Shown here one piece after another: positions 15,729 to 43,700 of a stretch of 64,000 bases of DNA. Source of the stretch: a virus (taxonomy: Duplodnaviria > Heunggongvirae > Uroviricota > Caudoviricetes). How positions within the stretch are numbered: position 1 is the first letter of the stretch; every line of letters starts with the position of its first letter. Under the pieces are notes generated by a model. It made no database searches. It was not told where the DNA came from and saw only the letters and a program-made list of their open reading frames with translations. The DNA is taken from IMG/VR virus record IMGVR_UViG_3300020156_000001, positions 1-64,000 of that record, one strand, 5' to 3'. The position numbers and the translations under genes are program-made.

Positions 15729-16070
15729 TTAGTGGTGAACCTTTTTATTGAGATTGAGGCCAATTTTCCACAGAACCCCAACCTTTTCCCTTACTTTGCG
15801 AAGGGCTTGTTCAGTGCGACGAACCCTGACTATGGGCGCAATGCTTGCAAAGGTAACCGTATCAATCAAATACAAACGGATACCCAAATCCGGTGCAGGT
15901 GTGTATGTGTTATCATCGCGCATTCCGCTACGAACTTGCACGGAAAACGGTGTCCTAGGTATGCTGGTCTGCCAACAGATTTCCCCATTGCCACGCTGAA
16001 ACTCCTGAAACCTCATGGTGTGGACCATGAGGTTCCGAAAAGCTTTGATGTCGTTGGAAAAACTCTTCAA
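15729..16070 (-). CDS. Hypothetical protein
   Basis: 113 aa, GAGG SD, in minus-strand run. Confidence 0.6.
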   Translation of the reverse strand: MKSFSNDIKAFRNLMVHTMRFQEFQRGNGEICWQTSIPRTPFSVQVRSGMRDDNTYTPAPDLGIRLYLIDTVTFASIAPIVRVRRTEQALRKVREKVGVLWKIGLNLNKKVHH

Positions 16071-22412: not shown

Positions 22413-22420
22413 TATAAATA
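22413..22420 (+). promoter_or_regulatory. T4-like late promoter TATAAATA
   Basis: Exact consensus ~40 bp before the giant FG-GAP gene, back to back with a minus-strand TTGACT promoter. Confidence 0.75.
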
Positions 22421-22459: not shown

Positions 22460-25400
22460 ATGGGCGTCAAAGCTACTGACTTCGGCAGCATTCTCATTGA
22501 AAAACACGTTGGCTTTCGTGGTGAACTAAGGTTCCCAGAAACCTTCTTGCCTACAAAGCAAGTTGGTGCTGGTACCTTTGGTCGTAACGCTGGCGATAAC
22601 TTTGGCTACTCCGTTAGTATTGACGGTATGTTGGCTGCGGTTGGTGTTCCTGCACAAGACTATAACGAAGATGGTGAACTAAGCAAAGCTGATGCGGGTG
22701 CAGTTTTTGTTTACCGTCGTAACCGCGATTCTTGGGAATTCGCTTACAAGATTTCCGCTCCAGAAGCTGATAGAGAAGAAGCCGATAACTTTGGCTACTC
22801 GGTTAGCTTGAAGGGCAATGTTCTCGTTGTTGGCTCTCCAAAGCACGCCGTTGACGCAGCACAGGCTAATCCAATTATTGGTGGTGGCGCTGCTTTTGTC
22901 TACAACATTGTTGCTGATGCCTTTGAACTAGAAGCAAAGCTAGTTCCTGCGGTTCGCGACGAAGATGACAATTTTGGTTCCGTAGTCAGCGCGTTCAAAG
23001 ACATCGTTTATGTGGGTTCTCATGCTCACGGCCGTAACGAACTGGAAGCACTTGATGCTCCTGCGGCTGGTGCAGTTTGGGCATTTGCTCGTAACTCGGA
23101 AACTGCTTCTTGGTCTCTTACAAAGAAGATTGTTGCCGGTGGTAACGATCGCAATCCAAATGACCAGTTTGGCTCCGCTGTTAGCGCACACAAGAACATT
23201 TTGGCTGTTGGCGTTCCAAACTACGATTACATCAGCAAGGGTATGGACCTTAAAACAAATGCTGGTGCGGTTTATGTATTTGAATGGAACACAGACCACT
23301 GGGTTTATCGTAGTCTAATCGTTGCTGCGGATCGCGCTGAAGGTGATCAGTTTGGTTCTGCCATTAGCGTATTCGACAAGCGCATTGCAATTGGCGCTCC
23401 AGGTAAGAACAAGGTTTACGTTTACGCACAGGACATCCTGGGCAACTACGTGTTGGCGTCCACTGCGGCTCCAACAATGCCAGTTCTCGCTGATGATCTA
23501 GAGCAGCCAACTTCTGCTACTCTCGTTGATGGCGCAAAGTTTGGTCAAGCTTTGAGCTTGAACGCTGATACTCTTGTTGTTGGTGCTCCAAATCAGCGCG
23601 GTCTTACCGTTGTTAGCATTGATCCACTTCCAGAGGATGCCGAAGAAGGCACACTAAAAACTTGGACTGGTTCGGAAACACCAAACGTTGGTTACGTATA
23701 CGTTTATGCTGTTGACGCTGATAGCAAGCTAACTCAAATCAATAAGTTTACAAGTGTTGATCGCCTAGAAGCGGGTCACGCTTTGGACAATGGTAACTTT
23801 GGTTCTTCCGTAAGTGTTGGTACTGATATTATCGTAGTTGGTGAACCTAATGCAAACGTTGGCTCCGCTGGCACCGACTATAAAACAAACGCTGGTACAG
23901 CTCATATCTATGTTCGCACCAACGGCACATTTGCTCACTCCAAGACCGTAGAAGGCTTCTACGTTGACCGCAACGATCAAGACGCATTTGCAACGGCTTT
24001 TGCACAGAACGATCGCTTTATGGTGTTTACAGCACCTGGTCAGGATTACGACACAAACAATGAGAACTACGTTAGCAACGCAGGTGCTGCTTATGTTTGG
24101 GAAAATGTTGCGGGCACTTGGACATATCGTCAAAAACTAGCGGCTGCTGATCGTTTTGCTGAAGCGGCTTTTGGTTCAAACGTTGAAATCCTAGGCGAAA
24201 CACTTTTCATTCAAGCAGCTCGTCCAAATAGCTCGGGTGCTGTTCATGTGTTTGCTTTGGAAAATGGCGCATTTGTTGAAAAGCAGCGCATTGTTCACGC
24301 CGACGCACTAGCCGGTGATATGTTTGGTTCGGTAATGCTGGCTCGTGATTCGCGCTTGTTTATCGCTTCGACCACAGTTGCCGCAAATGGCACTAACAAT
24401 CACGGCGCAGTATTCGCATACAATCTAGTTGATGGTCTTTACGAGTTTGCTTCCAAGATCGTTCCAACAACCCTTCAGTCGGCTTCGCGCTTTGGTAGCT
24501 CGCTAAGCTTGAACAACAATTTGTTGGCTGTTGGCGCTCCTGGTCATTCAACAGATTCCGGCAATGGTAACCCACTTGGTGAAGCCGGCGCAGTATTCTT
24601 GTTTACACCAGTTGAAGCTGGTTGGGAGCAAGTTGCAAAGATTGCTGGTCCAGGTACGGATCGCAACGCAAATGATTACATGGGCTTTGCTGTTGCTCGC
24701 AACGCAAACATGATTGCCGTGGGTATCCCAGGTGCAAACTATGACGCTGGTGTTTCAGTATACAAGGACTCAGCTGGTAAAGTTCAGTTGTTCTCCCGCG
24801 ATGGTATGGGTTGGAAACTTGAAGCTTCGTTGGATTCTCCAAACCGTTCCGTAATGGGTAGCTTTGGTCACTCCGTAGCAATGAGTGATACTCGCATTGT
24901 TGTTGGTGCACCAGGTGAACCCGAAGCGTTGGCTGGCACTTACGGCACAGGTCTTGCTTATGTTTGGGAAAAGGTAGCCGGTGAATGGGCAGTGGTAGCA
25001 ACTCTCAGCAATGATGAGATGCCTGCTTATGATCGTCGCTTTGGTTTTGCAGTCGCGATTGATGGCGATCGCGTTATCGTTGGCGAACCCAACTCTCGCA
25101 CTACAAGCGAAAATTCAACTGTTGTGGCAGCGGCTGGCGCGGCTTGGATCTTTGAAAAGAAGAACGGCTCTTGGAACAAAGTTTCCAAGCTTACCGCACA
25201 AGCTCTTGCGGGTCGTACTGCAAATGCAAACTTTGGTTTCTCCGTTGATATTCGCGGCACAATGGCTGTTGTGGGCGCTCCTTATGATACAACAAACGAT
25301 GTAGGCGCGGTAACTCTAGCCAATGCAGGTTCCACTTACGTATTCCGTCGCGCTGAATCTAGCGAAGGCGTTGTAAGCTGGAATCCTGAAAAGAAACTAG

Positions 25401-28400
25401 CAGGTTGGGCACAGGATCGTAACACGGATGACCGCTTTGGTTCTGCTATTGCAGCGTATGGTAACTGGGTTGTTGTTGGTGCAACTGGTCACGACTTTGA
25501 CTTGAATCGTGAAAACTTTGTGGATAACGCTGGTGCACTATTTGTTTACGAATGGGTAAACCGTGCGCTTGTTTATCGTCAAAAGCTTGTCGCACATAAC
25601 AATGCGGATCGTGTCGCAGACACTGGCTTTGGTTCAGTTGTTGCAATCAACTCCTTTACAATCGTTGCAAGCGCGCCAAATCTAAAGTCGGCCACTTCTC
25701 AGTATCGTGGTAAGGTTTGGACTTGGAAGCTTGAGAATGGTGCATGGGTTAAGGATCGTACTTTTGTATGTGCGAACTCTTCGGATCGCGATTCCACAAA
25801 CACATCCAGTACAACACGTTTTGGTTCTTCTCTCGCACTTAGCGATACAGTATTGGCTATTGGTAGCCCAGCAAGCGGCTTTGGTGCAACTTCCACCCAC
25901 GTTGATCGTGCTGGTGCTGTTGAAGTTTATCGCTTTGTTGAAAACGCATGGGCGTTTGAGAAAACGCTTGTAAGCGCACTTCGCAAAGCTGGTGATGAAT
26001 TTGGTACAACTATTGCGGTTCGTGACAATCTAATCGTTGTCGGCGGTATTGCTCCACAGTCTTCGACTCCATCGTTGGGTGCGGATACGCTTAACTATGG
26101 TGGTGGTGCAGCTTGGGTATTCCAGCAAGCCGGTGGTAACTGGAACCTAATCCAAAAGCTATCTCGCGGTGATGAAGCTGCAAACGTAAACCAGTTTGGT
26201 ACGGCTGTTCGTATCAGCGGCGACACAATGGTTGTTGGTGCTCCTGGTCACGTTTACGATGTAAATGGTCGTGACTTCAAGGTTGGTGCAGGTGCTGCCT
26301 ACGTATTCAAAATGACGGTTGATGGTTGGAAGTACAACACAACCCTACACGCACCGGATCGCGCTGAAAACCAATTGTTTGGTACTGATGTTGTGGTCAA
26401 GGACGATTTGATTTGGGTTGGTGCTCCTGGCGCGCTAAACGGCGGTGTTGTTTCGGGTGCTGTTTATGGCTTCCGTCGTGCAACTACTGGCGTTGAAACT
26501 CGTCGTACTCGTCGTGTTGCACGTTTTGTTGGTACTGGTGCAAATCAAACATTCACAGTTCCCGCAGGTATCGAAGAAGTTACCGCTTACATTTGGGGTG
26601 CTGGTGGTGCCGTAAACACCTCAGTTTCTGATGGTGGTAACGGCGGCTTTGTCCGTGTTAAGATTCCAGTAACACCGGGTGAGGAACTCACACTGGCTGT
26701 TGGTACTTCTCCAGCGGCTAATACTGGTGCTGGTGGCGGACGCTCTGAAATCCTACGTGGTGCTTCAACTCTTGCTGTTGCCGGTGGTGGCGGTGGTACT
26801 CCTGGTTTCGCACATGGTGGTGTTTGGGTTGGTACTGCAGGTTCGGCTGGCGCAAATGGTTCCTCTGGAACTGAAGCAGTTCTAGCGGGTCTCGCAGGTA
26901 CATCAAACGCTGGTGGTCTATCCCGTACAAGCACAGGCTACCTAAGTGGTAACGCTGGCTTGTTTAAGATGGGCGGCAATGGCCCAACTTATGAAGGTGC
27001 AACCTATTACACAGGTGGCTGGCCAAATGGTGGTTCTTCCACAGTTGGTGCGAATAGTTCGTTTGCTATCGGTGGTGGCGGTGACGGCTGGTATGGTGGC
27101 TCCGCAGGTGCAGTTGATCTAACTGCATCTTATCTTACAGCACCAGCCGGTGGTGGTAGCTCTTATATCGCTCCTGGTCTAACCGGTTATATGGGTTCGG
27201 TTAAAACTGAATACGATGATGCTTTTGCTTACCTAAGTGTTCTTGACAACACAGATGCACTAGCTTCCCGTCCAGCTGTTGTAAATCGCGATGGTATGGT
27301 TGTTGTTGAATGGTATGAAACATACGAGTCCAACGACTGGACTTTTGAACAACGCTTGAACATGACCACAAAGCCAATCAATGCCAACCTAGAGTTTGGT
27401 AAGACATTGGCATTTGATGGCGCAACACTGGTTGTTGGTAGCCCTGGTGATATCCATTCCCCATCTGGTGTAAACGTTGGCTTTGCCGCAGGTAGTGCCG
27501 CAGTTTATGAATTCAACGGCTTTGAATGGCAAGAATCGGCTGTTCTATTCCAGTTCGGTTTGAATTCCTATGCAAACGTCAATGCAATGTTTACCCACAG
27601 CATTAGCGTTCACGAAGACTACATCATCATTGGTGCTCCAAATCACAGCTATGATGAAGCTGGCGCAGAAGCTATGAATGGTGCGGGTATCGCTTACTTA
27701 TATCGTAAGGTTGCTGGTGCTTGGACAAACGTTCAGCGTTTGGGTCCATTGGGTTCCCAACGCAATAGCAACGATCTAATTGGTCACTCCATCCTATCCC
27801 AAGACGACTGGGTATTTGTTGGTATTCCAGGTCAGGAATACGATGCTGAAAACGCAAACAAGGTAACCAACGCAGGTGCGGTTAACGTTTGGAAGTGGGA
27901 AGGCTCCACACTAACATTCAAGCAAAAACTTACTGCACCATTTGCCGAGCGTAAGCTCAACAAGCAATTTGGTTGGGTTCTCGACTACGTTGATGGTCAG
28001 CTCTACGTAAGCAGCCCAGGTTCTCTTGTAGGTGGTACAGAAAATCTAGAAACTGCTGGTTCTCTCAATGTGTTTGGTCTTGAGGGTGATACTTGGGTTC
28101 CTGTTCAGACAATCAACCCACCGTTCTCCGCTCCTGGTTCCACACTGTTTGGTTATGATTTTGCAGTATCGCAGGATGCCCTAGCTATTACTGCCCCAGG
28201 CTCTGCAATGGATGCAATCAGCTTGGCTAACTTGACATGGCTTGCTTATCGTCCACAGGGCGATGCCAAGTACATTACACTTCAAATGCAAGAGTGGTCT
28301 GTGGAGCTTTCTTGCTTCCGTCCAGACTCCAGTTCTGCAACTTTGCTAAGCACGGAAACTCCAACAGGTCCAGGTAGTCTCTCGCTTAACGCTGCTGGTT

Positions 28401-31400
28401 TCGGAAGTCTCGAGCTTGTGGTAAGTGGGGTAAAACGCGGCGAAACTCTAGCATTTGGAACTAACGCTTGGAATCGCGTGATCATCCAGCGCAGTGGCAA
28501 CACAATGAGCTTCCACGTTAATGGAACTCAGGTAGCGTCTTGGGAAATCACTGGTCCATCGGATGTTCCTTATGGTCTTGGTGCTGGTATTATCCTTGGT
28601 AACACAGCGGGTAATGCTGATTCTGAAAAGCGTTACGAATACATTCGTGTCAACACCGAAGCTCTAATTCCAGCGGAAGCGTTCGATGACAACATGGGTC
28701 GTCGTCCATCGACAATCATGTATGCGAACTTCCGTTCCAACTACTTGGACATCGTTGAAGCATATGCGGCTACACCTGAAACACGTAACATTTCCAACGT
28801 ACCAACATTCGCACTAATCCCGGGTAAGACTTCCTCTGCAATTGCAGGTCAAGTTCACTTCTACAAGCGCGACAATGGTGTTTGGTCTTACGATCAATCG
28901 GTTCAGCCTTCGGGTCCAGTAACCGCAGGAGATCGTTTTGGTCACTCTGTGGATCTTGTTGAAGATTTCATGGTTGTTGGTTCTCCAATCCACAACTTGG
29001 ATCAAAGCAACGTTCGCCCACTTAGCAACTCTGGTGCAGTTTGGTTCTTCCAGCGCGTTGATTCCTCTTGGGTTCAACAGCAAAAGTTGTCGATGATCGG
29101 CGACGAAATGGTAAACGGCGAAGAAACTGGCGCAACAGTTGAATCCGCTGGAAACGTTATTGCTGTGGCTGCAACTCGTCATCCATACGATGATCAGGGT
29201 GAGAACTTTAGAGAATATGCAGGTGCTGTTTATGTATGGCGCTTTGAAAACGATACTTGGGTAATTGAACAAAAGATCGTTGCAAGCAACCGTCAAACAC
29301 GAGCCAACTTTGGTTACTCCATTGCAATAACCGACACGCTTATGGTTATTGGTGCACCATCAAATGATGATGCAACCAAGCCAGGCCAAGCATTTGTTTA
29401 TCGTAAGGAAGCCGGTGATACGGGTCTTTATCCTTGGAAATCCGAAGGCGAGCTAATTGCCCCAGGTACAAACGACCGTAAGCCAGGCGACAAGTTTGGT
29501 TATGCCGTTGCAATCAACAGCGATAACGAAGTTATGGTTGGTGCTCCACTGCACGACTTTAATGCTGCTGGCGCAAATGAACTTGCTGATGCTGGTGCGA
29601 TCTTTGTATTCAAGAAGGATACTTCTTGGACTCTATCCCAGAAGCTAACTGCAAATGCAATGCACAAGGGTGTTGCTGGTACAGTTGGTCGCGCTGCTGG
29701 CGAACAATTTGGTTCATCGATCACAACGTTTGGTAATGATCTAATTGTGGGTCAGCCATTCCGTGCAAATGATGCGCGTGGTCAAATGCCAGTTAGCCAA
29801 GCTGGTGGTGCCATTGTATTCACACGCGATAACGCAGATGCACTTTGGGAACAGACACAGATCATCGTTCCACAAATGCGCAACTCCGTGGCAAACGAAT
29901 ACGTTGGTAATGCTGTTTCCGGTTGGGGCGATATCTTCGTAGCTGGTTCTCCAATGAACAACTACGATGGTGACAACGACAATTACATGCAAAATGCTGG
30001 TGCCGTATATGTATGGCAAAAGCAGGGTTCGGAATGGAAGAACATTCAGAAGATCGCAGCGGTCAGCGCAAATGGTATCAATCGTCAGTCCAACGCGTTC
30101 TTTGGTGCATCGCTTATCCTTCATGAGGATATGCTAATTGTTGGTGCTCCTCAAACAACACAACAATTTACAGTTCCATCAACAACCAATGAGCAAGTTG
30201 GTGCGGTATTCATCTACAAGCTGGTAGATGGTAAATTCGAGTTCCAATACTCATTCCGTCCAGATGCTTCGGCTTCAAATTACAAGAACTACCGCTTTGG
30301 TTATTCTTTGGATTATGATGGTTCCACACTTATTGTTGGTGCCAACAATGCGGCTCAAACAAACACTGCACTTGATGGTTTTGGTCGCGCTTACTTCTTC
30401 GAACTAAATGAGGAAGGTGTATTCGAACAAACTGGTATGGTTGTTCCAAAGACAGCCCCAGCGCAAAGCATGAGCTATGGTACTTCGGTAAGCGTGCATG
30501 GTGATCTTGCTGTGGCAAGCTCCTCTACAGCTCTTAGCGGTGGCCATCCTGGCCGTGTTGTTATCATGCAGCGCATCGAAGGCACATGGGCCGAAGTTGA
30601 CATGGTTTTGGCTCAGGATCAAATGGCCGACAGTGGCTCGCAGTTTGGTTTTACTATTGAGTTTAGTGCGGACAATTCCAAAATGTTCGTTGGTGCACCA
30701 AACACCAGCTATGATCGCTTGAATCGTTTGGTATCAAATGGTGGTGCAGTATTCTTCTTTGAGAACGATAACGGCACTTGGGTATTCCGTCAGCGCATTA
30801 CACCGGTTGGTCAAAACTACCATCATGCGAATTCACAGTTTGGTTATTCGATCAGCTATAACAACGAACTAGGTTTGTTGTTCGTTGGCGCCCCAGGCAA
30901 TACCTACAACGGCATCGGCAATAGTATTGCGGCTCGTTATGGTGCAGTATTCGAGTTCAACCAGGACGAAGATGGCTTCTTCTATACAAAGAGCCGTATC
31001 CTTCCTGATCCCGCTTATGGTATGAACGGCTCCAACGACTTTGGCTACAAGATCCATTCGGAAGCTAATATGTTGTTGGCAAGTGCGCCAGGTAACACTT
31101 ATGGCAACCTCTCAACTGATCCGGCTGCTACTGCAATGGGTGGCATTCTCGCATTCCGTTTGGTGGATGAGAATTGGCTATTCATCCGCAAGATTATCCC
31201 AGAAGGTCGTAACACTGCGGTTGCAAACCGTCGCTTTGGTGAAGTGTTCAAGTACAAGGACAGCTTGCTTGCTGTGGGCGTTCCAAACAACCGTCACGAC
31301 GAATACGGCACAGACTTGTTCGATGGCTATGGCTCGGTATTCGTTTACAAGGTAGAAAGCCTAGACGCGCTTACAGTGGAATTTGTAGGTGGTAAGTTTA

Positions 31401-34400
31401 ACGCTCCTGCAAACGCAACAATCGGCTTTAACGAAGACGGTCAGTTTGATGCTGTTGAACTTCAATATGGTGGTGATGCTTATCGTGACACGCCAACAAT
31501 TGAATTCTCCGCTGCTGGCTTTGCTGCTCACGCATTTATGAATCCTGTGGGTCTTGCAAATCCAAGCTTGACTCGTTTGGGTTCGGGTACACCAACTGTA
31601 ACAGTGGTAAACGATCCACTTGACACAACTGGTGCAGGTGCTGAACTGGGTCTTACACGCGCTGGCTCTACAATTGGCAGCGTAAGTGTAACGGCTCCAG
31701 GTTCCGGCTACACCGACGTTCCAGCAGTTGAAGCAAATGGTGGTACCAATGTTAGCTTGCGTGCGGTTCTAAAGCCAACAAGCATCAGCGAAGTTACAAT
31801 TGGCAATCGTGGCGCTGGCTATACGGACTTCCCAACAGTTCAAATTGAAGCTCCGCAAACTGCTGGTCAACCCGCACAGGCACACATTGTAATGGAAGTT
31901 GATAACATGATTATCAACCAAACTACAAAGTCCTATCCTGGCGAAACGTTCAACGTTGATTTCAACGGCAACATGCTAACTCGCTTTAAAACGGCAACAG
32001 TTGATGCAGAAAGCAACATGCTAACTGTGGAAGTTGTAATCGCTGGCGAGTACAATAAGACAACAGTTCAAACTGGTCGTATTGCACATCGTGTTGTTGA
32101 AAATCGCGTTTACGGTCACATCTTGGACTTTGCTCCAGGTGTTGATGAAGACTATGGTCTGATCACAGAATCTGTTTACGAAGCTGATGATTATGGTTCC
32201 ATCACCGACACTACGATTGTTGTAAGCGAAGACTACAATATTGCAACAGACGCTCCAAGCTATGGCCCAATTACTGAGGAAGTTGTTGAGTATATGAGCT
32301 TTGGCCCGATTACAGCTACACCAGCAACGGTTAGCGTAACTGGTCGTTTGAAGACATTTACGCTGGACAACGCAGGCACAGGCTTTACTCGTCGTCCAAC
32401 AGTTGCGCTAGTTGGCACAAGCAGTGTTCCTGCTCAACTAACAGCGGTATTGACGCCAACTGAAGTTGCAAGTGTTGAAGTTGTTAATGGCGGTTACAAT
32501 GTTCCAAACGGCGTAAGCGTGGAAATCACTGGCGGTAATGGTACAGGCGCAACAGCGGTTCCAAATATCCAACTCGGTGTTATCAACGGCTTGTATGTGA
32601 TCAATGCAGGTTCAGGCTATACTCGTACACCAAAGGTTGAATTCTCGATTGATGGTTTTGCAGGTAAAGTTGAACTACAGCCAACAACCGTTGCAAGTGT
32701 TGTAACAACTGAAGTAGATGAAACCCTAAATGTTGAAGGTCGTCTCACACAGATCAAGCGTTTGTCCAATCCAATCAATGCTCGCCAAATCAACTCTCGC
32801 TTTGGTACGGCTATTGCTGGTTCTGGATCAACAGTTGCTATCTCTGGCTTGCCAGCAGTTGCAGACAACATTCCAACAAGCGGCGGTAACGTGGAAATCT
32901 TCGAAGTTCAAGAACGTGAAGATCGTGTTGTCAAGGTAGAAATGGATGGTTGGCTCAATGCAAGCTCAGCAATGGCTGGTCTTTCCGACTTTACGCTTAG
33001 CATGTGGTATCGTACATCCGACCGCACCAAGGTCAAAAACAACGGTACAATGTTCGCAGCAACAGATCCTACGCGTCCTGGTTTGTTCGAATCAATCCGT
33101 AGCACAACTGGCGGTTCGTTTACAGTACCAGCAAACGTAAACAAGATCCGCTTCCAGGGTTGGGGTGCAGGTTCTAAGAAGGCAGCTCGTCCAGACACAG
33201 GCGGCTTTGCTGGTGGTATCCTAGACGTAACTCCGGGCGAAAGCTTTGGTTGGTCTATGGACACAACAACTGGTCGTACTCGTCTAACTCGTGGTGGTGT
33301 TGAAGTCGCGAATATTGGCTCGGGTATTAACGATGCTCCAAACGGTTTTGCTGCGGATCCATTGGTTTCCAACGGCAACGCTGGCGGATGGAACCTGGCT
33401 TCCTACAATCCAAACTTTGGTGCCATCTATGTTCAAGGCCATTACCTCTCGGGTGTTGCCAACATGTATGATGCAGCAAACTTTGCAAGTGGTTACACTG
33501 GTACGGGCGTCTACAACATGACTGGTCACGTTTCCACAAAGTATGGTATTGATAACCGCATGATTCGTTTCTATTACGATTCTGGTACTTCAAGAAATGG
33601 TTCTTCCGACACTATTTCATCTGTGCCGCATATTAAGAGTGTTTACGTGAGCAAGGAATTCTCGCGTTTTGTGGATACCTTCAAAAACAATGGAACCGCT
33701 GATATCACGTTCAACGTTGTTTCCTATGTAGCTATTGGTGAAACCTATGGTTATACCACTGGCACATTCAACACCGCGCGTATGGAATTGGGAACTCAGG
33801 ATGGCACAACAAAGGTTGTAATATTGAACGGTGATGGTCAAGCTTTGCTTCCAGTGGATATTTCCAATATGTCGGTTCGCTCTCCAATGCGTGCGATGAC
33901 TTGGACAATCACATTGAAGCCAGGCGAAACAAAGTCCATTGCAACATTCTACGTTTGTGATCAACCAATCAACGGTGTGAGAACCGCTGCTAGTGCGGCT
34001 GCAACTGCTTTGCTTCCAAACCTAGAAGCTCTCTTCTATGGCTTGACCAATGCTGAAATTGCAACGATTGCAAACTTCAAGTTTGCTCGTGAAAATGAAT
34101 ATGCAACAACAGCGGATCCAATGTTCAGCAAGGTATACAATGGTGCAACTGGTTCTCCATCAAGCAGCCCAATGTATGATGGTGTTGCAGGTACTCTAAA
34201 CAACCCAGGCCTCGTAACAGTAAGCCCGGTAGTGGATACTCCAGCTAACCGTCAAAGCTTGCAGATCACCAACAATGGTAAGATCAACGTAAGCACGACA
34301 AGAGGCGAAGTTTCCTACTATACAAGCCCAATGGAAGATGGTTGGCACAACATCGTTTATACGGTTTCCGCTGAAAAGGCTTCCGTATACATCGACGGCA

Positions 34401-34633
34401 ACTATCAGTTTACAGTTGATGTTGACTCGTTGGGTGCTTCGGATATTGTTGCTTTGGGTGCCAAGTTTGACCAGGAATCAAATCTTGCGGAAAACGATAC
34501 ATTTGCAGGTTACCTAGCGGATGTGGCAGTTTGGAATACTTCGCTTACTGAGGAAGAAGTTCAAATGCTTCTCACAGCAAAGGCCGATACTATCCAGCCC
34601 GGCAATATCCGAGCTTACTGGTTGAAGAATTAA
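22460..34633 (+). CDS. Giant FG-GAP beta-propeller virion/adhesin protein with glycine-rich, LamG and GSGYT-repeat inserts
   Basis: Dozens of FG.SV...VGAP...AGAVYVF repeats; start moved to ATG 22460 (GGAGA SD; TATAAATA 22413-22420). Confidence 0.9.
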   Translation: MGVKATDFGSILIEKHVGFRGELRFPETFLPTKQVGAGTFGRNAGDNFGYSVSIDGMLAAVGVPAQDYNEDGELSKADAGAVFVYRRNRDSWEFAYKISAPEADREEADNFGYSVSLKGNVLVVGSPKHAVDAAQANPIIGGGAAFVYNIVADAFELEAKLVPAVRDEDDNFGSVVSAFKDIVYVGSHAHGRNELEALDAPAAGAVWAFARNSETASWSLTKKIVAGGNDRNPNDQFGSAVSAHKNILAVGVPNYDYISKGMDLKTNAGAVYVFEWNTDHWVYRSLIVAADRAEGDQFGSAISVFDKRIAIGAPGKNKVYVYAQDILGNYVLASTAAPTMPVLADDLEQPTSATLVDGAKFGQALSLNADTLVVGAPNQRGLTVVSIDPLPEDAEEGTLKTWTGSETPNVGYVYVYAVDADSKLTQINKFTSVDRLEAGHALDNGNFGSSVSVGTDIIVVGEPNANVGSAGTDYKTNAGTAHIYVRTNGTFAHSKTVEGFYVDRNDQDAFATAFAQNDRFMVFTAPGQDYDTNNENYVSNAGAAYVWENVAGTWTYRQKLAAADRFAEAAFGSNVEILGETLFIQAARPNSSGAVHVFALENGAFVEKQRIVHADALAGDMFGSVMLARDSRLFIASTTVAANGTNNHGAVFAYNLVDGLYEFASKIVPTTLQSASRFGSSLSLNNNLLAVGAPGHSTDSGNGNPLGEAGAVFLFTPVEAGWEQVAKIAGPGTDRNANDYMGFAVARNANMIAVGIPGANYDAGVSVYKDSAGKVQLFSRDGMGWKLEASLDSPNRSVMGSFGHSVAMSDTRIVVGAPGEPEALAGTYGTGLAYVWEKVAGEWAVVATLSNDEMPAYDRRFGFAVAIDGDRVIVGEPNSRTTSENSTVVAAAGAAWIFEKKNGSWNKVSKLTAQALAGRTANANFGFSVDIRGTMAVVGAPYDTTNDVGAVTLANAGSTYVFRRAESSEGVVSWNPEKKLAGWAQDRNTDDRFGSAIAAYGNWVVVGATGHDFDLNRENFVDNAGALFVYEWVNRALVYRQKLVAHNNADRVADTGFGSVVAINSFTIVASAPNLKSATSQYRGKVWTWKLENGAWVKDRTFVCANSSDRDSTNTSSTTRFGSSLALSDTVLAIGSPASGFGATSTHVDRAGAVEVYRFVENAWAFEKTLVSALRKAGDEFGTTIAVRDNLIVVGGIAPQSSTPSLGADTLNYGGGAAWVFQQAGGNWNLIQKLSRGDEAANVNQFGTAVRISGDTMVVGAPGHVYDVNGRDFKVGAGAAYVFKMTVDGWKYNTTLHAPDRAENQLFGTDVVVKDDLIWVGAPGALNGGVVSGAVYGFRRATTGVETRRTRRVARFVGTGANQTFTVPAGIEEVTAYIWGAGGAVNTSVSDGGNGGFVRVKIPVTPGEELTLAVGTSPAANTGAGGGRSEILRGASTLAVAGGGGGTPGFAHGGVWVGTAGSAGANGSSGTEAVLAGLAGTSNAGGLSRTSTGYLSGNAGLFKMGGNGPTYEGATYYTGGWPNGGSSTVGANSSFAIGGGGDGWYGGSAGAVDLTASYLTAPAGGGSSYIAPGLTGYMGSVKTEYDDAFAYLSVLDNTDALASRPAVVNRDGMVVVEWYETYESNDWTFEQRLNMTTKPINANLEFGKTLAFDGATLVVGSPGDIHSPSGVNVGFAAGSAAVYEFNGFEWQESAVLFQFGLNSYANVNAMFTHSISVHEDYIIIGAPNHSYDEAGAEAMNGAGIAYLYRKVAGAWTNVQRLGPLGSQRNSNDLIGHSILSQDDWVFVGIPGQEYDAENANKVTNAGAVNVWKWEGSTLTFKQKLTAPFAERKLNKQFGWVLDYVDGQLYVSSPGSLVGGTENLETAGSLNVFGLEGDTWVPVQTINPPFSAPGSTLFGYDFAVSQDALAITAPGSAMDAISLANLTWLAYRPQGDAKYITLQMQEWSVELSCFRPDSSSATLLSTETPTGPGSLSLNAAGFGSLELVVSGVKRGETLAFGTNAWNRVIIQRSGNTMSFHVNGTQVASWEITGPSDVPYGLGAGIILGNTAGNADSEKRYEYIRVNTEALIPAEAFDDNMGRRPSTIMYANFRSNYLDIVEAYAATPETRNISNVPTFALIPGKTSSAIAGQVHFYKRDNGVWSYDQSVQPSGPVTAGDRFGHSVDLVEDFMVVGSPIHNLDQSNVRPLSNSGAVWFFQRVDSSWVQQQKLSMIGDEMVNGEETGATVESAGNVIAVAATRHPYDDQGENFREYAGAVYVWRFENDTWVIEQKIVASNRQTRANFGYSIAITDTLMVIGAPSNDDATKPGQAFVYRKEAGDTGLYPWKSEGELIAPGTNDRKPGDKFGYAVAINSDNEVMVGAPLHDFNAAGANELADAGAIFVFKKDTSWTLSQKLTANAMHKGVAGTVGRAAGEQFGSSITTFGNDLIVGQPFRANDARGQMPVSQAGGAIVFTRDNADALWEQTQIIVPQMRNSVANEYVGNAVSGWGDIFVAGSPMNNYDGDNDNYMQNAGAVYVWQKQGSEWKNIQKIAAVSANGINRQSNAFFGASLILHEDMLIVGAPQTTQQFTVPSTTNEQVGAVFIYKLVDGKFEFQYSFRPDASASNYKNYRFGYSLDYDGSTLIVGANNAAQTNTALDGFGRAYFFELNEEGVFEQTGMVVPKTAPAQSMSYGTSVSVHGDLAVASSSTALSGGHPGRVVIMQRIEGTWAEVDMVLAQDQMADSGSQFGFTIEFSADNSKMFVGAPNTSYDRLNRLVSNGGAVFFFENDNGTWVFRQRITPVGQNYHHANSQFGYSISYNNELGLLFVGAPGNTYNGIGNSIAARYGAVFEFNQDEDGFFYTKSRILPDPAYGMNGSNDFGYKIHSEANMLLASAPGNTYGNLSTDPAATAMGGILAFRLVDENWLFIRKIIPEGRNTAVANRRFGEVFKYKDSLLAVGVPNNRHDEYGTDLFDGYGSVFVYKVESLDALTVEFVGGKFNAPANATIGFNEDGQFDAVELQYGGDAYRDTPTIEFSAAGFAAHAFMNPVGLANPSLTRLGSGTPTVTVVNDPLDTTGAGAELGLTRAGSTIGSVSVTAPGSGYTDVPAVEANGGTNVSLRAVLKPTSISEVTIGNRGAGYTDFPTVQIEAPQTAGQPAQAHIVMEVDNMIINQTTKSYPGETFNVDFNGNMLTRFKTATVDAESNMLTVEVVIAGEYNKTTVQTGRIAHRVVENRVYGHILDFAPGVDEDYGLITESVYEADDYGSITDTTIVVSEDYNIATDAPSYGPITEEVVEYMSFGPITATPATVSVTGRLKTFTLDNAGTGFTRRPTVALVGTSSVPAQLTAVLTPTEVASVEVVNGGYNVPNGVSVEITGGNGTGATAVPNIQLGVINGLYVINAGSGYTRTPKVEFSIDGFAGKVELQPTTVASVVTTEVDETLNVEGRLTQIKRLSNPINARQINSRFGTAIAGSGSTVAISGLPAVADNIPTSGGNVEIFEVQEREDRVVKVEMDGWLNASSAMAGLSDFTLSMWYRTSDRTKVKNNGTMFAATDPTRPGLFESIRSTTGGSFTVPANVNKIRFQGWGAGSKKAARPDTGGFAGGILDVTPGESFGWSMDTTTGRTRLTRGGVEVANIGSGINDAPNGFAADPLVSNGNAGGWNLASYNPNFGAIYVQGHYLSGVANMYDAANFASGYTGTGVYNMTGHVSTKYGIDNRMIRFYYDSGTSRNGSSDTISSVPHIKSVYVSKEFSRFVDTFKNNGTADITFNVVSYVAIGETYGYTTGTFNTARMELGTQDGTTKVVILNGDGQALLPVDISNMSVRSPMRAMTWTITLKPGETKSIATFYVCDQPINGVRTAASAAATALLPNLEALFYGLTNAEIATIANFKFARENEYATTADPMFSKVYNGATGSPSSSPMYDGVAGTLNNPGLVTVSPVVDTPANRQSLQITNNGKINVSTTRGEVSYYTSPMEDGWHNIVYTVSAEKASVYIDGNYQFTVDVDSLGASDIVALGAKFDQESNLAENDTFAGYLADVAVWNTSLTEEEVQMLLTAKADTIQPGNIRAYWLKN

Positions 34634-34704
34634 ACACAATAGGAATAGGTCTCCAGGGCGCATAAATACTCGTGAATCAAAATCGAGTTGCCCTGGAGAC
34701 AACA

Positions 34705-37700
34705 ATGACTTCTATCCCCGACAATTCAGTCAATGGTCATGATCTGATCATCAACGGAAACTCTAAAATGTCTGAAGGCATTCAAGAGAAGTCCGTTGTC
34801 CATAAAGCGTCCATTAAGCCAACAACGGTTGGATTTCTAACAAGTGCGGACAACTTTGGTTCGATCATGGACATTTTTGAGGATGTTCTTGTTGTTGGTT
34901 CTCCCACAGTAAATCAGCTTTCAGGTGCAGTTTGGGTGTTTGAGAAAACTTCCAAGCAGCGTATCCGCAAAAGCCAAAAGGTTTCTCGCGAGCGCCAAAC
35001 ATTTACCCACACCGGCTCAAAGCAAACATGGACCGCACCGGAAAATGTCAAAAACGTTACAATCCAGTTGGTTGGTGCCGGCGGTGGTGGTAACGCTTTG
35101 GGAACACACCTCGGTGGTAACGGCGCATACGTAAAGGCTGTGATTGCAGTTGATCCAGGCAAGACATATGACATTATTGTTGGTCAAGGTGGTGTAGCCG
35201 CTGGTACAACTCGCCCATTCGGTGGCGGTGGTCGTGTTCCTGAAAACAGCATCGGTGGATCCGGTGGTGGTCGCTCTGCTATTGCTGATCCTGTATTCGG
35301 CGACATGCTTACCGCAGGTGGTGGTGGTGGTGCGGGTAAAGATGGCCCAGGTGGTTTTGCCGGTGTTAAAGCAGGCGATGGCGTTGCGCTAAAAGCTGAT
35401 GGTTCCGCTATTGTTCCCGCAGTAAACGCAATCGGCGCTAATGAATACCTCACAGGTTTCAACGCTTCGGCTCTCACAACAAATTACTTGGTTGATGGTC
35501 TTTGGACTCTCACCAACAACATCATGGATCCAGCCACAGGTGTTGAAAAGCCAAACTACTTGAACACAAAGTACCAAGGTGAAGACGCTAAAGCGGCACT
35601 ATCCCTGCTTGGAAAGACCGTAAACGAAAGCGGCGCCGGCGGTGGTGGTTTCGCAGGTGGTGCTGCTGGTCCTGAGTCCTACGGCGAACGTTTTAGAACA
35701 ACAGTGGGCAATATTTTCCCAACCGGTGGTTCTGGTTCGGGTGGCTCGTCCATGGCGGATCCAACTCTCGCATTCCCATTCCGTAACACCGAAGATATGA
35801 TTCGCGATGTTGTGGTATTCGACGGTAATGCTCGTCAGCTTCCAGTTGAATTTGATGCCTTTGGTCATGGTGGCGATGATACCACACCTGGTCAGGATGG
35901 TACCATTGTTATTGAATGGGACGTATACGCTGAAGGTGATGATGAAACCACTGAAGACCTTCAAGACTGGAAGGAAACACACTTCTACACGTTCAATCCA
36001 GTTGATGCCGGTGGTATCAACTATAGCTGCCGCGTTGGTGCAGCGGTTGCCACAAATGGCGAATATATCGCTATTGGTTCACCGTATGACTTAGCAAATT
36101 CAGATGGTAACCTCTTTGCGCCACCACAAATCGGTGGTAACGGAACCCTTACAATCCTCAAGAAGGAAAATGGTGCTTGGGTTCGCACTCAACGTATTAT
36201 CGCAACTGGCACAAACGGCCGCACTGACAACCTGTTTGGTGCTTCGGTAAAGTTTATCGGCGGCAAACTATTTGTAGGCGCTCCAACAAGCGACACAGAT
36301 TCAACTGGCGCAAATGCGGTTACCGATGCTGGTGAAGTGTTTGTATTTGAACTAGTTAACGATGCTTGGGTACAAACCGGCCGCATTAGCGCGACTGGTA
36401 CTAACAGCCGTATCGCAAGCGATTCGTTTGGTTACAAGCTGGCTGGCTTTGGCGACACGCTTATGGTTGCCAGCAAGAACAGCTATGACGCACTTGGTGC
36501 AAACCTAGTTGCTGGCGCTGGTTCAGTATTCGTTTATAACGTTGATACTCTAGCACAAGTCCAACGTATTGCGGGTCCTCGCATTGCAAATGCAGGCTTT
36601 GGTTCTTCGATGAGCGTAAAAGCGGGCACGATGGTTATTGGTGCCGAAGGTACTGCTGAAACTTACGTTTACAAGCTTGAAAACACAACTTGGGTACAGG
36701 AAACAAAGAAGTCTCATGCGGCTTCGCACTTGATCTCTTACTGCCCAATGCTTGTGACAGGTAATACCGTAGCTCAATCGGTAAATGGTTTGAACTTCAC
36801 CTACGAGAGTCACACAATGAGTGAAGGTATCTCCGGTGGTACTCTTGGTGATATCTATCAGTTCTACTTTGGTAATACCCAGCGCGGCCGTAGCCGTAGC
36901 AACAACAACATGGGCTTTACTCAAAACTATGGCCGTCGTGGTGGTTTCCGCGCAAGTGTTCCAGCGATTCTATCTCGCACCGAATTTACACTTTCCAAGT
37001 GGCTTTACATTTTGCAGCCGCAAACATTCACCGGCTTTGAAAACGCTGGTACTCCAATGCCATTGTTCCGTCGTGGTTCGCTTTGGGGTGTATTCCTGGA
37101 ACGTAGCTCAGGTGAAGCAAATGGTGGTAACCTTTACTTGCAGGTAGCCAACAGCGGCAATCCAAAGCGTTTCCACTTTGGTAAGCTGCCAAAGGATCGC
37201 TGGATTCACATGGCGATTACTCTAAAGGGTACCAAGCTTCGTTTGTTCGTAAATGGTGAACTCCGCAACACCTATGATATTGCAAGTGTTTCGCTTGCAG
37301 ATGATCCTTCGATTCCAATCTCCTGGGGTTACAACCCAGCAATTGATGCTCTTGAAGCTCCGCTTTATGGTATGGGAGATTTTGCGCTTTACGATATTGC
37401 TCGTTATGATCAGTCCTACACGCCATCGGATACTTCATATTTTGAAACCCACTGGAATGAAATTCCAAAGGATCCATCCACATTTGGCCGTGGTAAGGCT
37501 GCATTTGTTGTTGACGAAAACACAATTCTAGAAGGTCTACCAACGTCCTATTCGGATGAAGCAGTTCATCACAACCCACGCACAAGACACCAAAACTCCA
37601 CAGTTCATCACGAAGACATTATGATGAACTCGGGTAAGGTTGAGATCACACAATTTGACGGTGAAGAATGGACAACTGAAAAGTCTCTTCCAATCATCAC

Positions 37701-40700
37701 TCCAGGTCACGCTTATATTCGTCCAAACTATGGCACACAGTTTGGTAAAAACGTCCATATCGACAAAGACCACTTGTATGTTTACGCGATGGATTCCATG
37801 GAACACGCCAGCAATTGGTCGCCATCGTTGGGTGCAGTATGGACATTTGATGTTCAAAACGATTTCAAGCTAATTGAAAAGGTTCTCTCACCTGCACGTA
37901 AAGACGCTGCGATGGGTGATCTCAAAGTTGAAAACGTTGACAAGATGTCAATTGTTGACCGTAGCGCAACAGTTCGTAACGAGCTTTACTTTGGCTTTGA
38001 AACGATGGCGCTTATCAACAATGGCGACAATCATGTTCCATATGCGTTCAAGAAGCTTTACTATGCGGATCGCCAACAGCGTCGTACGGATATCGAGGTT
38101 GATTCCTCTGGCTTGCCATTTAGCACGGCTTCCTATTACTATCAGACGATCACTTCGGCTGAGATGAAAACACAACAGATTTCATCACTAAATGCGCCGT
38201 TTGCAACGTTTAACTCAATAGCAAGCCCAATGCCAGCAGCTAAGGTATTCGAGCGTAACTTGGTCTCTGATAGTTCGGGTAAGACTTATGTGATGCAGCC
38301 AAACGAACGTTCAACGTTTGGTCCATACACGAAGTCGTTTCCAGGCAAGGTATCCGAACTACAGTATCAGATCAACGGTTCCTATAACTTTGTTGAAACT
38401 TTTGCTATGCCAGGTTCTGAAGGCGCCAACACAGGTTATGATACATTTGGCTTGACTGTTAAGGTTGTCAATGATACGGTTTGGATTGGTTCTTCCCAAT
38501 CCCTACACACCCAGTATAACTGGAACTCTGGTTACTATTTCGGTAAGATCTACTCCTACAAGTATTTCAAAGAACGTGCGGGTTGGGATATTGATCGTAC
38601 CCTGCAAAACATTCCATCTGCCACACCAGCAACGCATCCTATGTTTGGATCATCCTTTGATATCAAGGGCGATTTCCTCTTGGCGCGTAGCCGTGGTGCA
38701 GCCAACACAACAGCTTATCTCTACAAGATCAACGAAGACAGCTTTGAACTTGTACAGCAGGTAACAGTTGGTACAGACTCCGACGACAACAAATTTGCGG
38801 GTAGCGCAGTTGCATTCTTTGGCGACTCGATGGAATCCGTTATTGGTAGCCCATGGACTCACACCCCAAGCCGCAATTATGTGGGTCGTGTTGATCACTA
38901 TGGTTGGGATGAAACTGCTGGTCAGCTTGTTCCTGATTCCGTACTTTACCGCCCAACAATGCTTGTCGACGATCGCGAATACGTAACAAGCTTGGGTTCC
39001 GCAGCGGTTCTTTCCAATGGTCGTTTGTTCGTAGGTGCAGATTATTACTCCAAGGACGAAGCATTCAACTTGACTCGTGGTGGCAACGGTGCGGTTTATT
39101 ATTACGATAAAAACGCCGATGGTTACTGGGAACAGAAGGGCATCATGTCCAACTACGTGGGCAACACTGGTCTTCGTATGGGCGCTCGCATCCACGTTAT
39201 GGGTGACTCTGTTCTCATGCACGGAAATTACCCATCCAACAACCGTGTTGACCTAATGAAGCATGATGCGGTAACTGACACTTATGCGTTTGTTAAGTCG
39301 TTTACTTCATCGCCAAACAAGTATCCGGCAAGCGGTGCGTTTGTAAGCGAAAACCACATCGTAATAGGTCAAATCTACACCACAGCCCAAGTAAATCAGA
39401 CTGGTCCAATGACTGGTAGCTGGGTAGAGTATAAGGGTGCAGATGCAACTTGGACTGTTGGTTCCGATCATTATGTTCCAATGATCACAAATGGTGCTTA
39501 CGATTACGGCGTTATCGACTACACAAGCTTTGCAAACACGATTTATGGTCGTGCAACTGATGAGCGTTTTGGTACCGACGTTAAGCTTAGTGCGGACAAG
39601 TCCATGCTATTGGTTGGTGCACCATCAAACTATTACAACGCAAATCACGTATCAAAGAATCCAGTTGGTAACCTTGGTGCAGTTGTTGCGTTCTACTGGG
39701 ATGAAACAAACACAAAGTGGCGCTTGAACACCAAGATCCACGACACCAACAGTGAAACTCAAGGCACACAGTTTGGTCAGAAGATTACACGTTCGGGTAA
39801 CGACTTTATCGTTACATCCTACGGTACAACTCTTGAAGGTATTATCACAACCCTAAGCTATGATGTAAGCGGCGTAAACGCAAAGTGGACTCAAAAGTTC
39901 CAGTTGAAGAACAACGTAGGTTACACTTACTTTGGTTCTGGCGTTGCCTATGATAGTGTTCGTGACTTGTATGTGGTTGGTACGGAAATGGGTTCTGTGG
40001 ACTCCATGCAAAGTGGTTTGTTTGAAACAATCACTTCTACAAAAACACGCCAATCATACTCGATTGCAGGTTCCGTTAATAACCGTGTTGCTGGTATGGC
40101 ATTTGGTTACTCGGTTGCCACTTACGATGGTAAGATGGCAGTTGGTGCACCATATTACCCATACAGCAATAATGGTACAACCCCTGCTGGTCCCGGTGGC
40201 GGTCTTGTCTACACTTACGAACTTACACCTAACAATACGTTTAAGCCGGTTCAGAAAATCACATTTGAAAACCAAGCAACGAATCATTTTGGCTTGCAGT
40301 TGGGTATTTCCAATGAGCAGATGTTTGTAACTGGCACAAGCACAAAGCCTGTGGTATTGTCCAAGGATGGTTCTGGTAAGTTTGTAAACCCTGTAACAGT
40401 TAATGCCATTAACTCTTCGGGTCAGACTATTACACCTCGCACGGTTGCTTGGGATCCTGAAACAAAGGAATCAGCGTTTGTTGGTTTGTCCTCAAATGTT
40501 TGGAACATTCCTCTCAACTTTGGACCAAATGGTGTTGTTGTTCCACTAAACTGGGATGGCGACAAATACGTGCAGGATACCGCGTTCTCCAGTGCAAGCG
40601 TAACAGCAACAAACATTGTGGATCTTCCAAATCTAGCACTTTCGCTAAACACACAATTTGGTCAACATGGTATGGCATTCTCGCCGGACAAGACTAAGTT

Positions 40701-43700
40701 GGCAATTGCAGCGCCGGGTGATCATTACTCCGTTTATAAGCCTGAACCCCTATATGCGAACCAAGGCACAAACCTACTCAATGGTAAGGTTTATGTTTAC
40801 GAATGGGACGCAGATAAGAGCAAGTTTGTACTCCACAGCGTGATCCCAACACCAGCGTTTGGTGCAGCGACTTCCGAGACTATGCGTTTGAGCTGGGATG
40901 GTGATCGTTTAACAGTTGGTATTTCTAATATCCTATATGCGTATGAGCATGTTGAAGATCGTCTTTGGAAGGTTGTTGAAACAACTTCAATGGAAAGCGG
41001 CTTTGTAGGTTCGATCACAGCGTTGGAAGGTCAAGCCCTGCTTATGACCCGTCCAACATCCAAGGGTTACCCAAGTGTAGAAAATTCCGGTGCAATCCGT
41101 GTTCAACTTTACAACGATGGTATCCTAGGAAGCAGCCGTGGAATCCGTGCAGGTGCAAACGCAGAAGTGTTCAACAATGGTACTGATACTGTTGGTCGTG
41201 GTGGCGGTGGTGCAGGCGCTATCGGTGGTAAGGCTTCGGGCTACCTCAGCATCCGTGGTAAGGCAACTGGTGGTTCTAACTTGGTCCCAGCTGGTGCAAA
41301 CGAGTTTATCAGCAATGGTACAACCCGTGCAAACGCGATAAGCGAACATGCAACTGGTGCCGGTGGTAATGCTCCTGGTGCAAATGGTGAAAACGCACGC
41401 ATTGTTATCAAGGCTGGTGAAACAACTACAGTATTTGACTTCAATGGCTTTGATCAGAACTATGTGGTTCCAGCGGGTGTTTCGGAAATCGAATTCACAA
41501 TGTGGGGTGCAGGTGGTGGCTCGGCCAGCGATCGTGATCTAACAGAGTGGTATCAAGCTCGTAGTGGTCGCGGCGGTGCTGGTGCTTGCGTAAGCGGCAC
41601 GCTTGCTGTTACTGCTGGTGAAACACTCAAGCTGATCGTAGGCGGCGGTGGTTCCGGTGGTAAGCGTTTTGCTGAATCTCCAAGCCTCAAAAAGCAGCTC
41701 AAGTATGGCTTGGGTGGTATTGGTAGCCTAGCACAGAACGCTTCAGATAACTCCGGTGGCTGCGGTGGCGGTCTAGCTGCTATTGCACGCGGCGAAACCT
41801 ATCTCGCTATTGCTGGCGGTGGTGCGGGCGGTTCTATGGCTGTGGCAGCAAATGTCCGCTTGGATGGTCTGCCTGGTGGTCTTCTTGTGGATCAGGACGT
41901 TTCAATCTCCAACTCTACATCTAGCGATGCAGATCACATTTATGCTCCAGGCATTACAAACTCTCGTGCAGCTGGCGACTACTTTGGTTACAAAGTTGCT
42001 ATTGCTGGCGACGATAGCATTCTTGTTGGTGCTCCTGGTCATGACTATGATTATGTTGGCGATCGTCTTCCAGACAATGCTGGTGCCGTATACGCTTATG
42101 CTCGCACAAACGGCAAGTGGGAAATCACAACAAAGATCAACTCTGCAGTTCCAACAACTGGCGAGTTCTTTGGCTTGGACATCAACGTTGCTGCGGACAA
42201 GGTAGCAGTGTTGGGCGGTTCTCCAAAGGGCTATGGCGTAGGTTACCTACACGAGTACGTCGATGCTCTATCCAGCAACTCACTGGAAGTGTTCACACGT
42301 ACGGGTGATTCACTTACAAGCCTAGCCAAGACGCTTATCACAGACCCGGTTAAGACTGGTAAGAGTGTTGTACTTGATGGCAATGATTTGGTTTTGGGTA
42401 CTCCATCACTTAGAACAAATGGTCTGGCAACTCCATTGATTCAAGCCGGCGGCTTTGAAACATATGCGATCAATGCGCCAACAATGTCCAAGGTAGATAC
42501 CCAAGTTTCCGCTGGTGTTTCGCATGGTCGTTTTGGTGGTGACAAGTTTGGTTCTTCTGTGGAGCTTATCGGTAACCAAGTTGTTATCGGTGCCCCAGGA
42601 CACGACTACACAACAAACGGCGAAGACTATCGTTTGGATCAAGGCGCATTGTTCGTATTTGAGAAGAAGGGTCCGGTTTACAGCTTCCGTAGCAAGATCA
42701 ACTTGGAACTCGAATCCGAAGCAACAGGCTTTGGTAAGACTCTAAAGGTAATCGGCGACAAGCTCTATGCGGGCACTGATGATGTTGCTCATAACGTTGA
42801 ACTAACACAAACAAACGGCAACTGGGCAATTTCCAAGCATATTGAATCCACTGCGGGTAAGATTGCTGAGATTGTAAGCCAGAACAAGCTGATCGTGTTG
42901 GATCCAACAAGTGGTGCAGGTCTAAATGGTCAGCCAACTCTTGCGGCTTCTGGTATTGCTCACACGTTTGCAATCGAATCCGATGGCACAACAACAGATC
43001 AGAATCAGTCCTATACGATCCCAGGCAAGTCCCGTGGTCGTAACGCGGGTGATCAGTTCGGTTACTCCGTATACGCGGGCAATGACTTTGTTGTTGTTGG
43101 TGCTCCAAACCACAGCTTTGATGCAAATGGTCTCACACAGGACAAGGCAGGCGCGTTGTTCGTATTCAACAAGTCCGGCGACAAGTGGAATGCAGAAACA
43201 AAGATCGTTCCTGATCTAGCAGCTACAACAGGTTTCGGTCGCACAATTGCTGGCCGTAACGGTTGGATCATTACAAGCGGTCTAACATTGGATGATGGCT
43301 TTGCTCGTGTAATGCAGCGCGTGGCAACTGGTGTTTGGGAAACTCGTAAGGATTACACTGGTACGGGTATTGGTGGTGATGGTTTTGGTATGGCAGTGGC
43401 TGCCGCAGACACAAATAAGTTTGCAATTGGCTCTCCGCTATCCGATTCTGACTTCACAGATACTGGTTCAGTTCAAACATACGAGCGTGTTGGCGCGGAT
43501 TGGTTCAACCGCAATACTCTGCAAACACAAGGTCTAACAAAGGGTCGCAACGCAGGCGATTGGTTTGGTTACTCCGTAGCGTCGAACAAGAACTATGTGG
43601 TAATCGGTTCTCCAAAGTATGCGTATGATGCAGTTGGTGCAAATGAACTAGCTGAATCTGGTGCACTCTGGATCTACTTGAAGAACAGCAAGTTCCCAAT

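Follow-up and report, generated by a model that had tools for sequence, protein, structure and literature searches.

A giant FG-GAP/LamG gene of jumbo phages, probably split inside a LamG domain, with a candidate late promoter between its halves

The window analysed here comprises the first 64,000 nucleotides (nt) of the IMG/VR virus record IMGVR_UViG_3300020156_000001, a single 480-kb contig from a phage that was placed among the soil jumbo phages. Two consecutive giant genes in the window, gene 1 and gene 2, encode proteins built of FG-GAP repeats and LamG domains. They very probably represent a conserved gene fission, in which gene 2 would be expressed from its own late promoter and its own Met, and the two halves are predicted to rejoin in trans without a covalent link. 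The break, which lies within a domain and is conserved between phages, is biological.

In the proposed mechanism, two genes would here make a giant FG-GAP/LamG protein that a relative produces as a single chain, the cut falling in a loop shortly before a LamG domain is complete. The gp55-type sigma factor of the phage would read the motif ATAAATA; this late promoter in the gap would drive transcription of gene 2, whose translation would begin at its own Met. The Shine-Dalgarno sequence (SD) would be open on RNA starting at this promoter because such RNA lacks the 5' arm of a hairpin, and would be occluded on read-through RNA from gene 1, as in T4 gene e. The first 85 or so residues of gene 2 would then lock into the unfinished LamG domain and propeller of gene 1 by beta-strand complementation, and the product may be a virion adhesin or fibre.

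The break and its conservation

Pfam searches detected FG-GAP repeats and LamG domains in both proteins, with Gly-rich domains in gene 2. Together the two proteins carry approximately 70 FG-GAP units, among which the LamG domains are nested. Gene 1 terminates in IRAYWLKN, with AAT (34628-30) as the last codon before TAA, and gene 2 opens MTSIPDNSVNGHDL at the ATG at 34705, after a gap of 71 nt and in a different frame. An earlier sequence-only reading of the window had pointed out these two ends, the difference in frame and the AAT codons at 34675 and 34681, all of which were confirmed in the sequence (Table 1).

The same break was observed in the Sinorhizobium phage Phosso (PV764938). Phosso genes 108 and 107 are syntenic orthologues of gene 1 and gene 2 (approximately 46 % and 41 % identical, respectively) and encode proteins of 3,692 and 3,162 amino acids (aa), which are broken at the same residue. 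They are annotated as hypothetical proteins (XYS97267 and XYS97266), and the annotation does not mention the split. Unlike the window, Phosso is without the LamG insert of about 370 aa, and its gap is 73 nt long. Phosso was the sole full orthologue among the INPHARED phages, and Atu_ph07 had no match to either giant gene.

Further orthologues were collected from 1.84 billion representatives (top 150 of 1,318 matches) and from a second search (27 matches); alignment A8 was excluded as it was scattered over the repeats. The W-x-x-N end is present in all six distinct gene-1 proteins, including those of the window and Phosso. All ten gene-2 proteins start with Met and contain a conserved Asp, which is at position 6 in nine of them and at position 4 in one. 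The starts of the gene-2 relatives are gene-caller output, yet they are mutually in register. Pairwise identities ranged from 28 to 78 % among the gene-2 proteins, from 32 to 47 % among the gene-1 proteins and from 28 to 47 % between distant lineages, and W-x-x-N of gene 1 and D6, S8, L14 and G18 of gene 2 were invariant across the aligned proteins. In three pairs (P0118/P0154, P0153/P0157 and P0135/P0158), the gene-1 and gene-2 orthologues have a longest contig of equal length and are probably neighbours.

When viral contigs were scanned, one locus (L002) was found to carry a gene-1 orthologue, which ends 1,799 codons into gene 1. A total of 32 viral contig loci shared short stretches only and none matched the gene-2 start, and the viral contig, metagenome and genome scans revealed no further DNA spanning the junction. 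A word-indexed search with the gene-1 tail returned nothing among the longer proteins and two generic LamG proteins only among those of near length.

An assembly error, against which a check had been advised in the earlier reading, was ruled out as the cause of the break. Positions 32500-36500 are matched by a single contig of sequencing run X1 with zero differences (not an independent confirmation, because X1 is possibly the source of the window DNA), and the identical break is present in the independently sequenced Phosso.

Both giant genes are on the plus strand (window 22430-44220), and their neighbours are nearly all on the minus strand, in the window genome and in Phosso alike.

A fused relative and the direction of change

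The sequence-only reading had recommended a search for fused orthologues, and one protein, P0079, was found to run unbroken through the junction. P0079 is a single chain of 7,078 aa encoded on one 572-kb contig, with approximately 30 % identity to residues 2121-3537 of gene 1 and residues 2182-3171 of gene 2. The order at its junction is a blade, a LamG domain with a Gly-rich insert, W-x-x-D, eight residues, D-S-S-G and the next blade, and the Gly-rich insert occupies the same LamG site as the insert in the window. Between W-x-x-N/D and the Asp, the loop consists of eight residues without a Met in P0079 and of five residues, the first being Met, in the split form.

A hidden Markov model (HMM) of the gene-1 tail matched the P0079 junction with an E-value of 3e-11. 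The match of P0079 to the gene-2 start was weak (BLAST E-value of 1e-4 for residues 6-178), and an HMM of the first 45 residues of gene 2 gave no match at the P0079 junction. The correspondence between the gene-2 start and P0079 is thus suggested by BLAST, the motif order and the gene-1 tail HMM. As the break lies inside a domain, fission must have occurred at some point, and we infer that the one-piece form is ancestral.

Predicted clasp between the two proteins

Residues 1-85 of gene 2 appear to complete two folds at once, the LamG domain and a propeller of seven blades. The blade left incomplete in gene 1 is completed by a gene-2 strand at about residues 27-39, just before ADNFGS, as seen in P0079. 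The earlier proposal that gene 2 finishes this blade therefore stands as to the source of the strand; ADNFGS itself, to which the completion had been ascribed, opens the next blade. Gene 1 has 41 FG-GAP matches, which correspond to 40 units (one is interrupted), in addition to a possible degenerate N-terminal unit. If the degenerate unit is counted, the first FG-GAP unit of gene 2 is number 42 (6 × 7). In P0079, the stretch that begins at residue 816 and ends with the matching unit comprises 35 units (5 × 7).

At its N-terminus (window 22460-22570), gene 1 has 36 residues that look like a compact, degenerate FG-GAP blade and are conserved in the orthologues. The insert in the split LamG domain, for the second half of which Pfam gave no match, is missing in Phosso and P0099; an insert at the same site is long in P0118 and shorter in P0135 and in the fused P0079.

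Co-folding of the two termini, which had been named earlier as a check, gave a passing model. When residues 3427-4057 of gene 1 and residues 1-92 of gene 2 were co-folded with custom alignments supplied, the score was 0.70, compared with 0.00 for the best control. For scale, 116 of 157 solved complexes attain the mark, as do 2 of 215 mismatched pairs, although it is a rough guide here given the custom alignments. The runs shared at least 87 % of contacts, and the predicted local distance difference test (pLDDT) value of the partner was at least 68. In the models, W4054 contacts gene-2 residues 4 and 6, gene-2 residues 14-20 pair with residues 3493-3501, and the interface also includes blade residues 3450-3486 and gene-2 residues 27-64. 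The models seat gene-2 residues 4-64 in the LamG domain and the last propeller blade of gene 1. Sequence searches of PDB gave a weak pentraxin match (3flp; E-values of 0.009 and 0.04).

It is very improbable that the two proteins, although made separately, no longer bind each other here, the broken LamG domain being vestigial and each protein attaching to the virion alone. Such a loss could be read from the LamG core, which is divergent (33 % identity between the window and Phosso) and tolerates large inserts. However, the aligned proteins show no variation at either complementary end, the passing co-fold has a specific interface, and, to judge from the unit count, the unit that closes a seven-bladed propeller comes from gene 2.

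Neither a split intein nor a self-splicing intron was detected: Pfam shows FG-GAP, LamG and Gly-rich domains only, Rfam gave no match at its threshold, and the two ends align to P0079.

Candidate late promoter, hairpin and Shine-Dalgarno sequence in the gap

The sequence-only reading had postulated a new promoter and an SD for gene 2, and candidates for both were found in the gap, namely ATAAATA at 34662-68 and GGAG. It had also described a strong hairpin around the in-frame AAT codons, which is present at 34649-34700 with a predicted energy of about -28 kcal/mol and a z-score of -6.1 against dinucleotide shuffles.

For jumbo phage CBB, the late promoter has been proposed to be the same ATAAATA motif (PMC5259590). 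In the window genome, 40 of its 67 copies lie 15-60 nt before the start of an open reading frame (ORF), compared with 14 of 48 for the best of 20 other permutations of the motif. The genome encodes a late sigma factor (phrog_12791; E-value of 1e-88) with 80.8 % identity to that of Phosso and 50.9 % identity to that of Atu_ph07.

The transcription start was taken as 4-6 nt past the motif, based on the position at which T4 late transcription starts relative to its promoter motif. The predicted cost of opening the SD-to-AUG region was 14.9 kcal/mol on read-through RNA versus 4.4 kcal/mol on promoter-start RNA in the window, and 13.3 versus 4.3 kcal/mol in Phosso. Across the hairpin, promoter and SD, the two phages agree at 49 of 58 nt, and in the flanking coding DNA at 42 of 74 and 50 of 76 nt (57-66 %); the 22 nt around ATAAATA are identical. 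From the sequences compared, the hairpin is better read as a stem that encloses a likely late promoter and occludes the SD than as a bypass signal. One idea is that blocked read-through would make the output of gene 2 depend on its own promoter and so balance the two halves.

The six strongest promoter hairpins in the genome all lie 22-54 nt behind a co-oriented ORF, a position shared by 20 of the 40 promoter sites overall. Among these six are the hairpins of the tail sheath gene, which follows a DprA-like gene, and of a gene that follows the replicative helicase. Promoter-straddling hairpins were found at 296821, 276519, 233665 (-) and 457832 (+) of the full genome (G000 C1; loci L036-L039), each just behind a co-oriented ORF. 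The genes following them are tail-fibre-like, tail sheath and two others. Within the window, two further ATAAATA sites with strong predicted hairpins are on the minus strand: one at 8965-9000 (motif at 8990; z of about -4 to -5) and one at 15694-15745 (motif at 15722; z of about -3 to -4), which precedes a gene for a 1,292-aa S8-type protease.

Bypass and read-through as alternatives

The sequence-only reading had offered programmed bypass as a speculative alternative. Ribosomes would take off at the terminal AAT of gene 1 and land at the in-frame AAT at +53 (+52 in Phosso), giving a chain of about 7,240 aa, either alone or beside separate initiation of gene 2. We regard this as very improbable, as most of the gene-60 features that were tested fail. 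It is true that AAT-TAA ends gene 1 in both DNAs, that AAT is a minority Asn codon in gene 1 (103 of 275) and that Asn is terminal in all six gene-1 proteins, with Asp at that place in P0079; this LamG position commonly carries Asn or Asp, and a stop directly follows the candidate take-off codon in both phages as it does at any gene end.

Both phages also have an in-frame AAT at an equivalent place in the loop, from which the frame stays open as far as the ATG, with intervening indels that sum to 3, and the spacing is close to the 50 nt of gene 60. An in-frame AAT in Phosso has a chance of roughly 2 in 3, because its loop contains two AATs of different phase, and the +47 AAT of the window is out of frame in Phosso. 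The in-frame AATs at +47 and +53 follow an in-frame TAA at 34663. The take-off codon is without a stem-loop (-0.3 and 0.0 kcal/mol in the two phages), and 1 of 15 nt is identical after the stop, whereas the take-off stem-loop is described as selectively conserved in gene-60 cassettes (bioRxiv 2022.08.31.505936). None of GAG, GGA, AGG and GGG was found 5-7 nt before the AATs at +47, +53 or +52; GGG precedes the +37 AAT of Phosso, but the +37 AAT of the window is out of frame. A hop would moreover leave 12-14 residues where fused P0079 has eight, and the start codon is held in register in all ten gene-2 proteins.

We give a similarly low probability to a combined scheme, in which read-through RNA with its SD occluded would yield the fusion of about 7,240 aa by an AAT hop unrelated to gene 60 and promoter RNA would yield free gene 2, the two together setting a ratio of long to short fibres.

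Least probable of all is that the hairpin acts otherwise on read-through RNA (processing, pausing or a ribosome-opened stem), with gene 2 made mainly from the gene-1 transcript and trans complementation kept: the predicted stem in Phosso does reach from just past the stop over the AUG, and the 22 identical nt exceed the need of a 7-mer, but the motif is the dominant pre-gene 7-mer among the permutations and stands at a typical distance, the main stem begins 15 nt past the stop and is not followed by a U-tract, and no Rfam family reached its threshold (best 19.9 bits versus 45). A frameshift match in Rfam was likewise far below threshold.

Weighing of the proposed fission and its clasp

The earlier reading had favoured fission followed by strand complementation, and the fused relative, the conserved split point, the promoter motif with its SD and the passing co-fold are all consistent with it. 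Several points weigh against this interpretation. Just one fused protein was present among the top 150 of 1,318 matches, and midpoint-rooted trees, which have no true root, place P0079 with the split P0041, so that re-fusion in P0079 is possible. Junction DNA was compared for two phages, the window phage and Phosso. Split halves tend to pass the co-fold by likeness to intact folds, and a pass therefore indicates fit, not binding.

SD-occluding hairpins were not found to be enriched at ATAAATA-bearing starts genome-wide. A z-score below -4 was found at 6 of 40 motif-bearing starts versus 11 of 141 control starts, which include miscalled starts (p = 0.22). Opening costs of at least 12 were found at 4 of 28 motif starts versus 33 of 287 controls (p = 0.76), and the comparison of hairpins between co-oriented and other promoter sites gave p = 0.12. 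In addition, gene 1 is itself likely late, and a need to shield gene 2 from its read-through is not evident. Finally, the proposed virion role derives from the promoter class and partial PHROG matches.

Table 1 Coordinates of the two giant genes and of features at and near their junction (window positions)
Feature	Position	Strand	Description
Likely late promoter of gene 1 (ATAAATA)	22414..22420	+	No strong hairpin (z of about -0.2); motif also before the L002 gene-1 orthologue
Gene 1	22460..34633	+	4,057 aa, ATG at 22460 to TAA; 40 detected FG-GAP units; Gly-rich and LamG inserts; C-terminus within a LamG domain
Last FG-GAP unit of gene 1	32768..32920	+	Residues 3437-3487; outer strand predicted to come from gene 2
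First part of split LamG domain	32921..33082	+	Residues 3488-3541; 3493-3501 predicted to pair with gene-2 residues 14-20
LamG insert	33083..34198	+	About 370 aa; begins with a Gly-rich-type module
LamG core	34199..34630	+	Pfam Laminin_G_3, E-value of 3e-13; runs to the W-x-x-N end
Gene 1 stop	34631..34633	+	TAA
Spacer after stop	34634..34648	+	1/15 nt identical to Phosso; without take-off stem-loop
Hairpin	34649..34700	+	Conserved; 3' arm holds the SD; predicted on read-through RNA only
Likely late promoter of gene 2 (ATAAATA)	34662..34668	+	Within the hairpin; 29 nt past the stop in both phages
AAT codons at +47 and +53	34675..34683	+	Gene-2 frame; proposed landing sites; in-frame Phosso counterpart (+52) for the second only
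SD (GGAG)	34695..34698	+	6 nt before the ATG in both phages
Gene 2	34705..44220	+	3,171 aa; about 29 detected FG-GAP units; Gly-rich and LamG domains
Predicted clasp	34705..34959	+	Gene-2 residues 1-85; LamG tail strands, outer strand of gene-1 blade and one more FG-GAP unit

Function and significance

The late-promoter motif, the partial matches of the giant proteins to PHROG virion structural families and the tail-protein neighbours suggest that the giant protein is a virion part, likely a fibre or adhesin. An insert of about 470 aa lies between the last two blades of gene 1 (residues 2970-3436; window approximately 31370-32760). It contains repeats of the GSGY type with matches to virion structural and head-closure families in PHROG, and could be the attachment point to the virion. 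Elsewhere in the genome (G000 C1 352685-369810), two neighbouring ORFs encode 1,198 and 4,509 aa, lengths that correspond to those of two proteins listed for phage AP-J-162, the baseplate wedge (1,198 aa) and a structural protein (4,455 aa).

A very large, likely virion protein is cut here inside two nested folds, and distant lineages of jumbo phages have kept the cut at one and the same residue, with no mobile element at the break. This suggests a possible way to keep fibres of 7,000 residues makeable, in which the protein is split, the second half is placed on its own timed promoter and a small clasp rejoins the parts. The clasp of about 85 residues is a candidate natural protein-assembly pair. 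Phosso, which grows on S. meliloti, is a cultured relative that makes the system experimentally accessible.

Comparison with known systems

Fractured genes and T4-type promoter hairpins are each already known. No description of the split was found in the open-access literature, most subscription journals being outside the search, and the term 'FG-GAP' was not found in the main texts of the Atu_ph07 and AP-J-162 papers.

Virion parts of jumbo phages have been described as carrying LamG3 or concanavalin-fold lectin domains (PMC7824862). As in those cases, the phage with LamG3 domains here is a jumbo phage, and its late sigma factor is of the T4 type. Unlike in those cases, they are nested in approximately 70 FG-GAP units; the main text of that review contains neither 'propeller' nor 'integrin'.

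For T4 genes e, soc, 49 and I-TevI, the SD is described as paired in long transcripts, with a late promoter in the DNA of the 5' strand of the stem, so that late RNA is without this strand (PMC3014915). The gap hairpin resembles these in that the SD is predicted to be paired on the long RNA and that promoter-start RNA would lack the 5' strand. It differs in that the motif is ATAAATA, not TATAAATA, the upstream gene is likely late too, and the element sits at the break point of what was once a single protein.

The junction resembles T4 gene 60 in that the codon directly before the stop occurs again, in the new frame, some 50 nt further on. In contrast to gene 60, a take-off stem-loop and a mini-SD at the conserved landing candidate are absent, the sequence past the stop is not conserved, and an SD, an ATG and a promoter motif belong to the downstream ORF itself.

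The closest parallels to the fission are T4 genes 39/60, described as split by mobA (PMC3014915), and Aeh1 nrdA-a/nrdA-b, described as split by mobE (PMC3045599). There too a single gene in relatives is two genes in the phage, and the halves are expected to rebuild one protein. The present pair differs from both in having gaps of 71 and 73 nt without a homing endonuclease or any ORF, and no added tails, the two ends being three residues short of the fused loop. Furthermore, the product is likely a structural adhesin rather than an enzyme, and the cut lies inside nested LamG and propeller folds.

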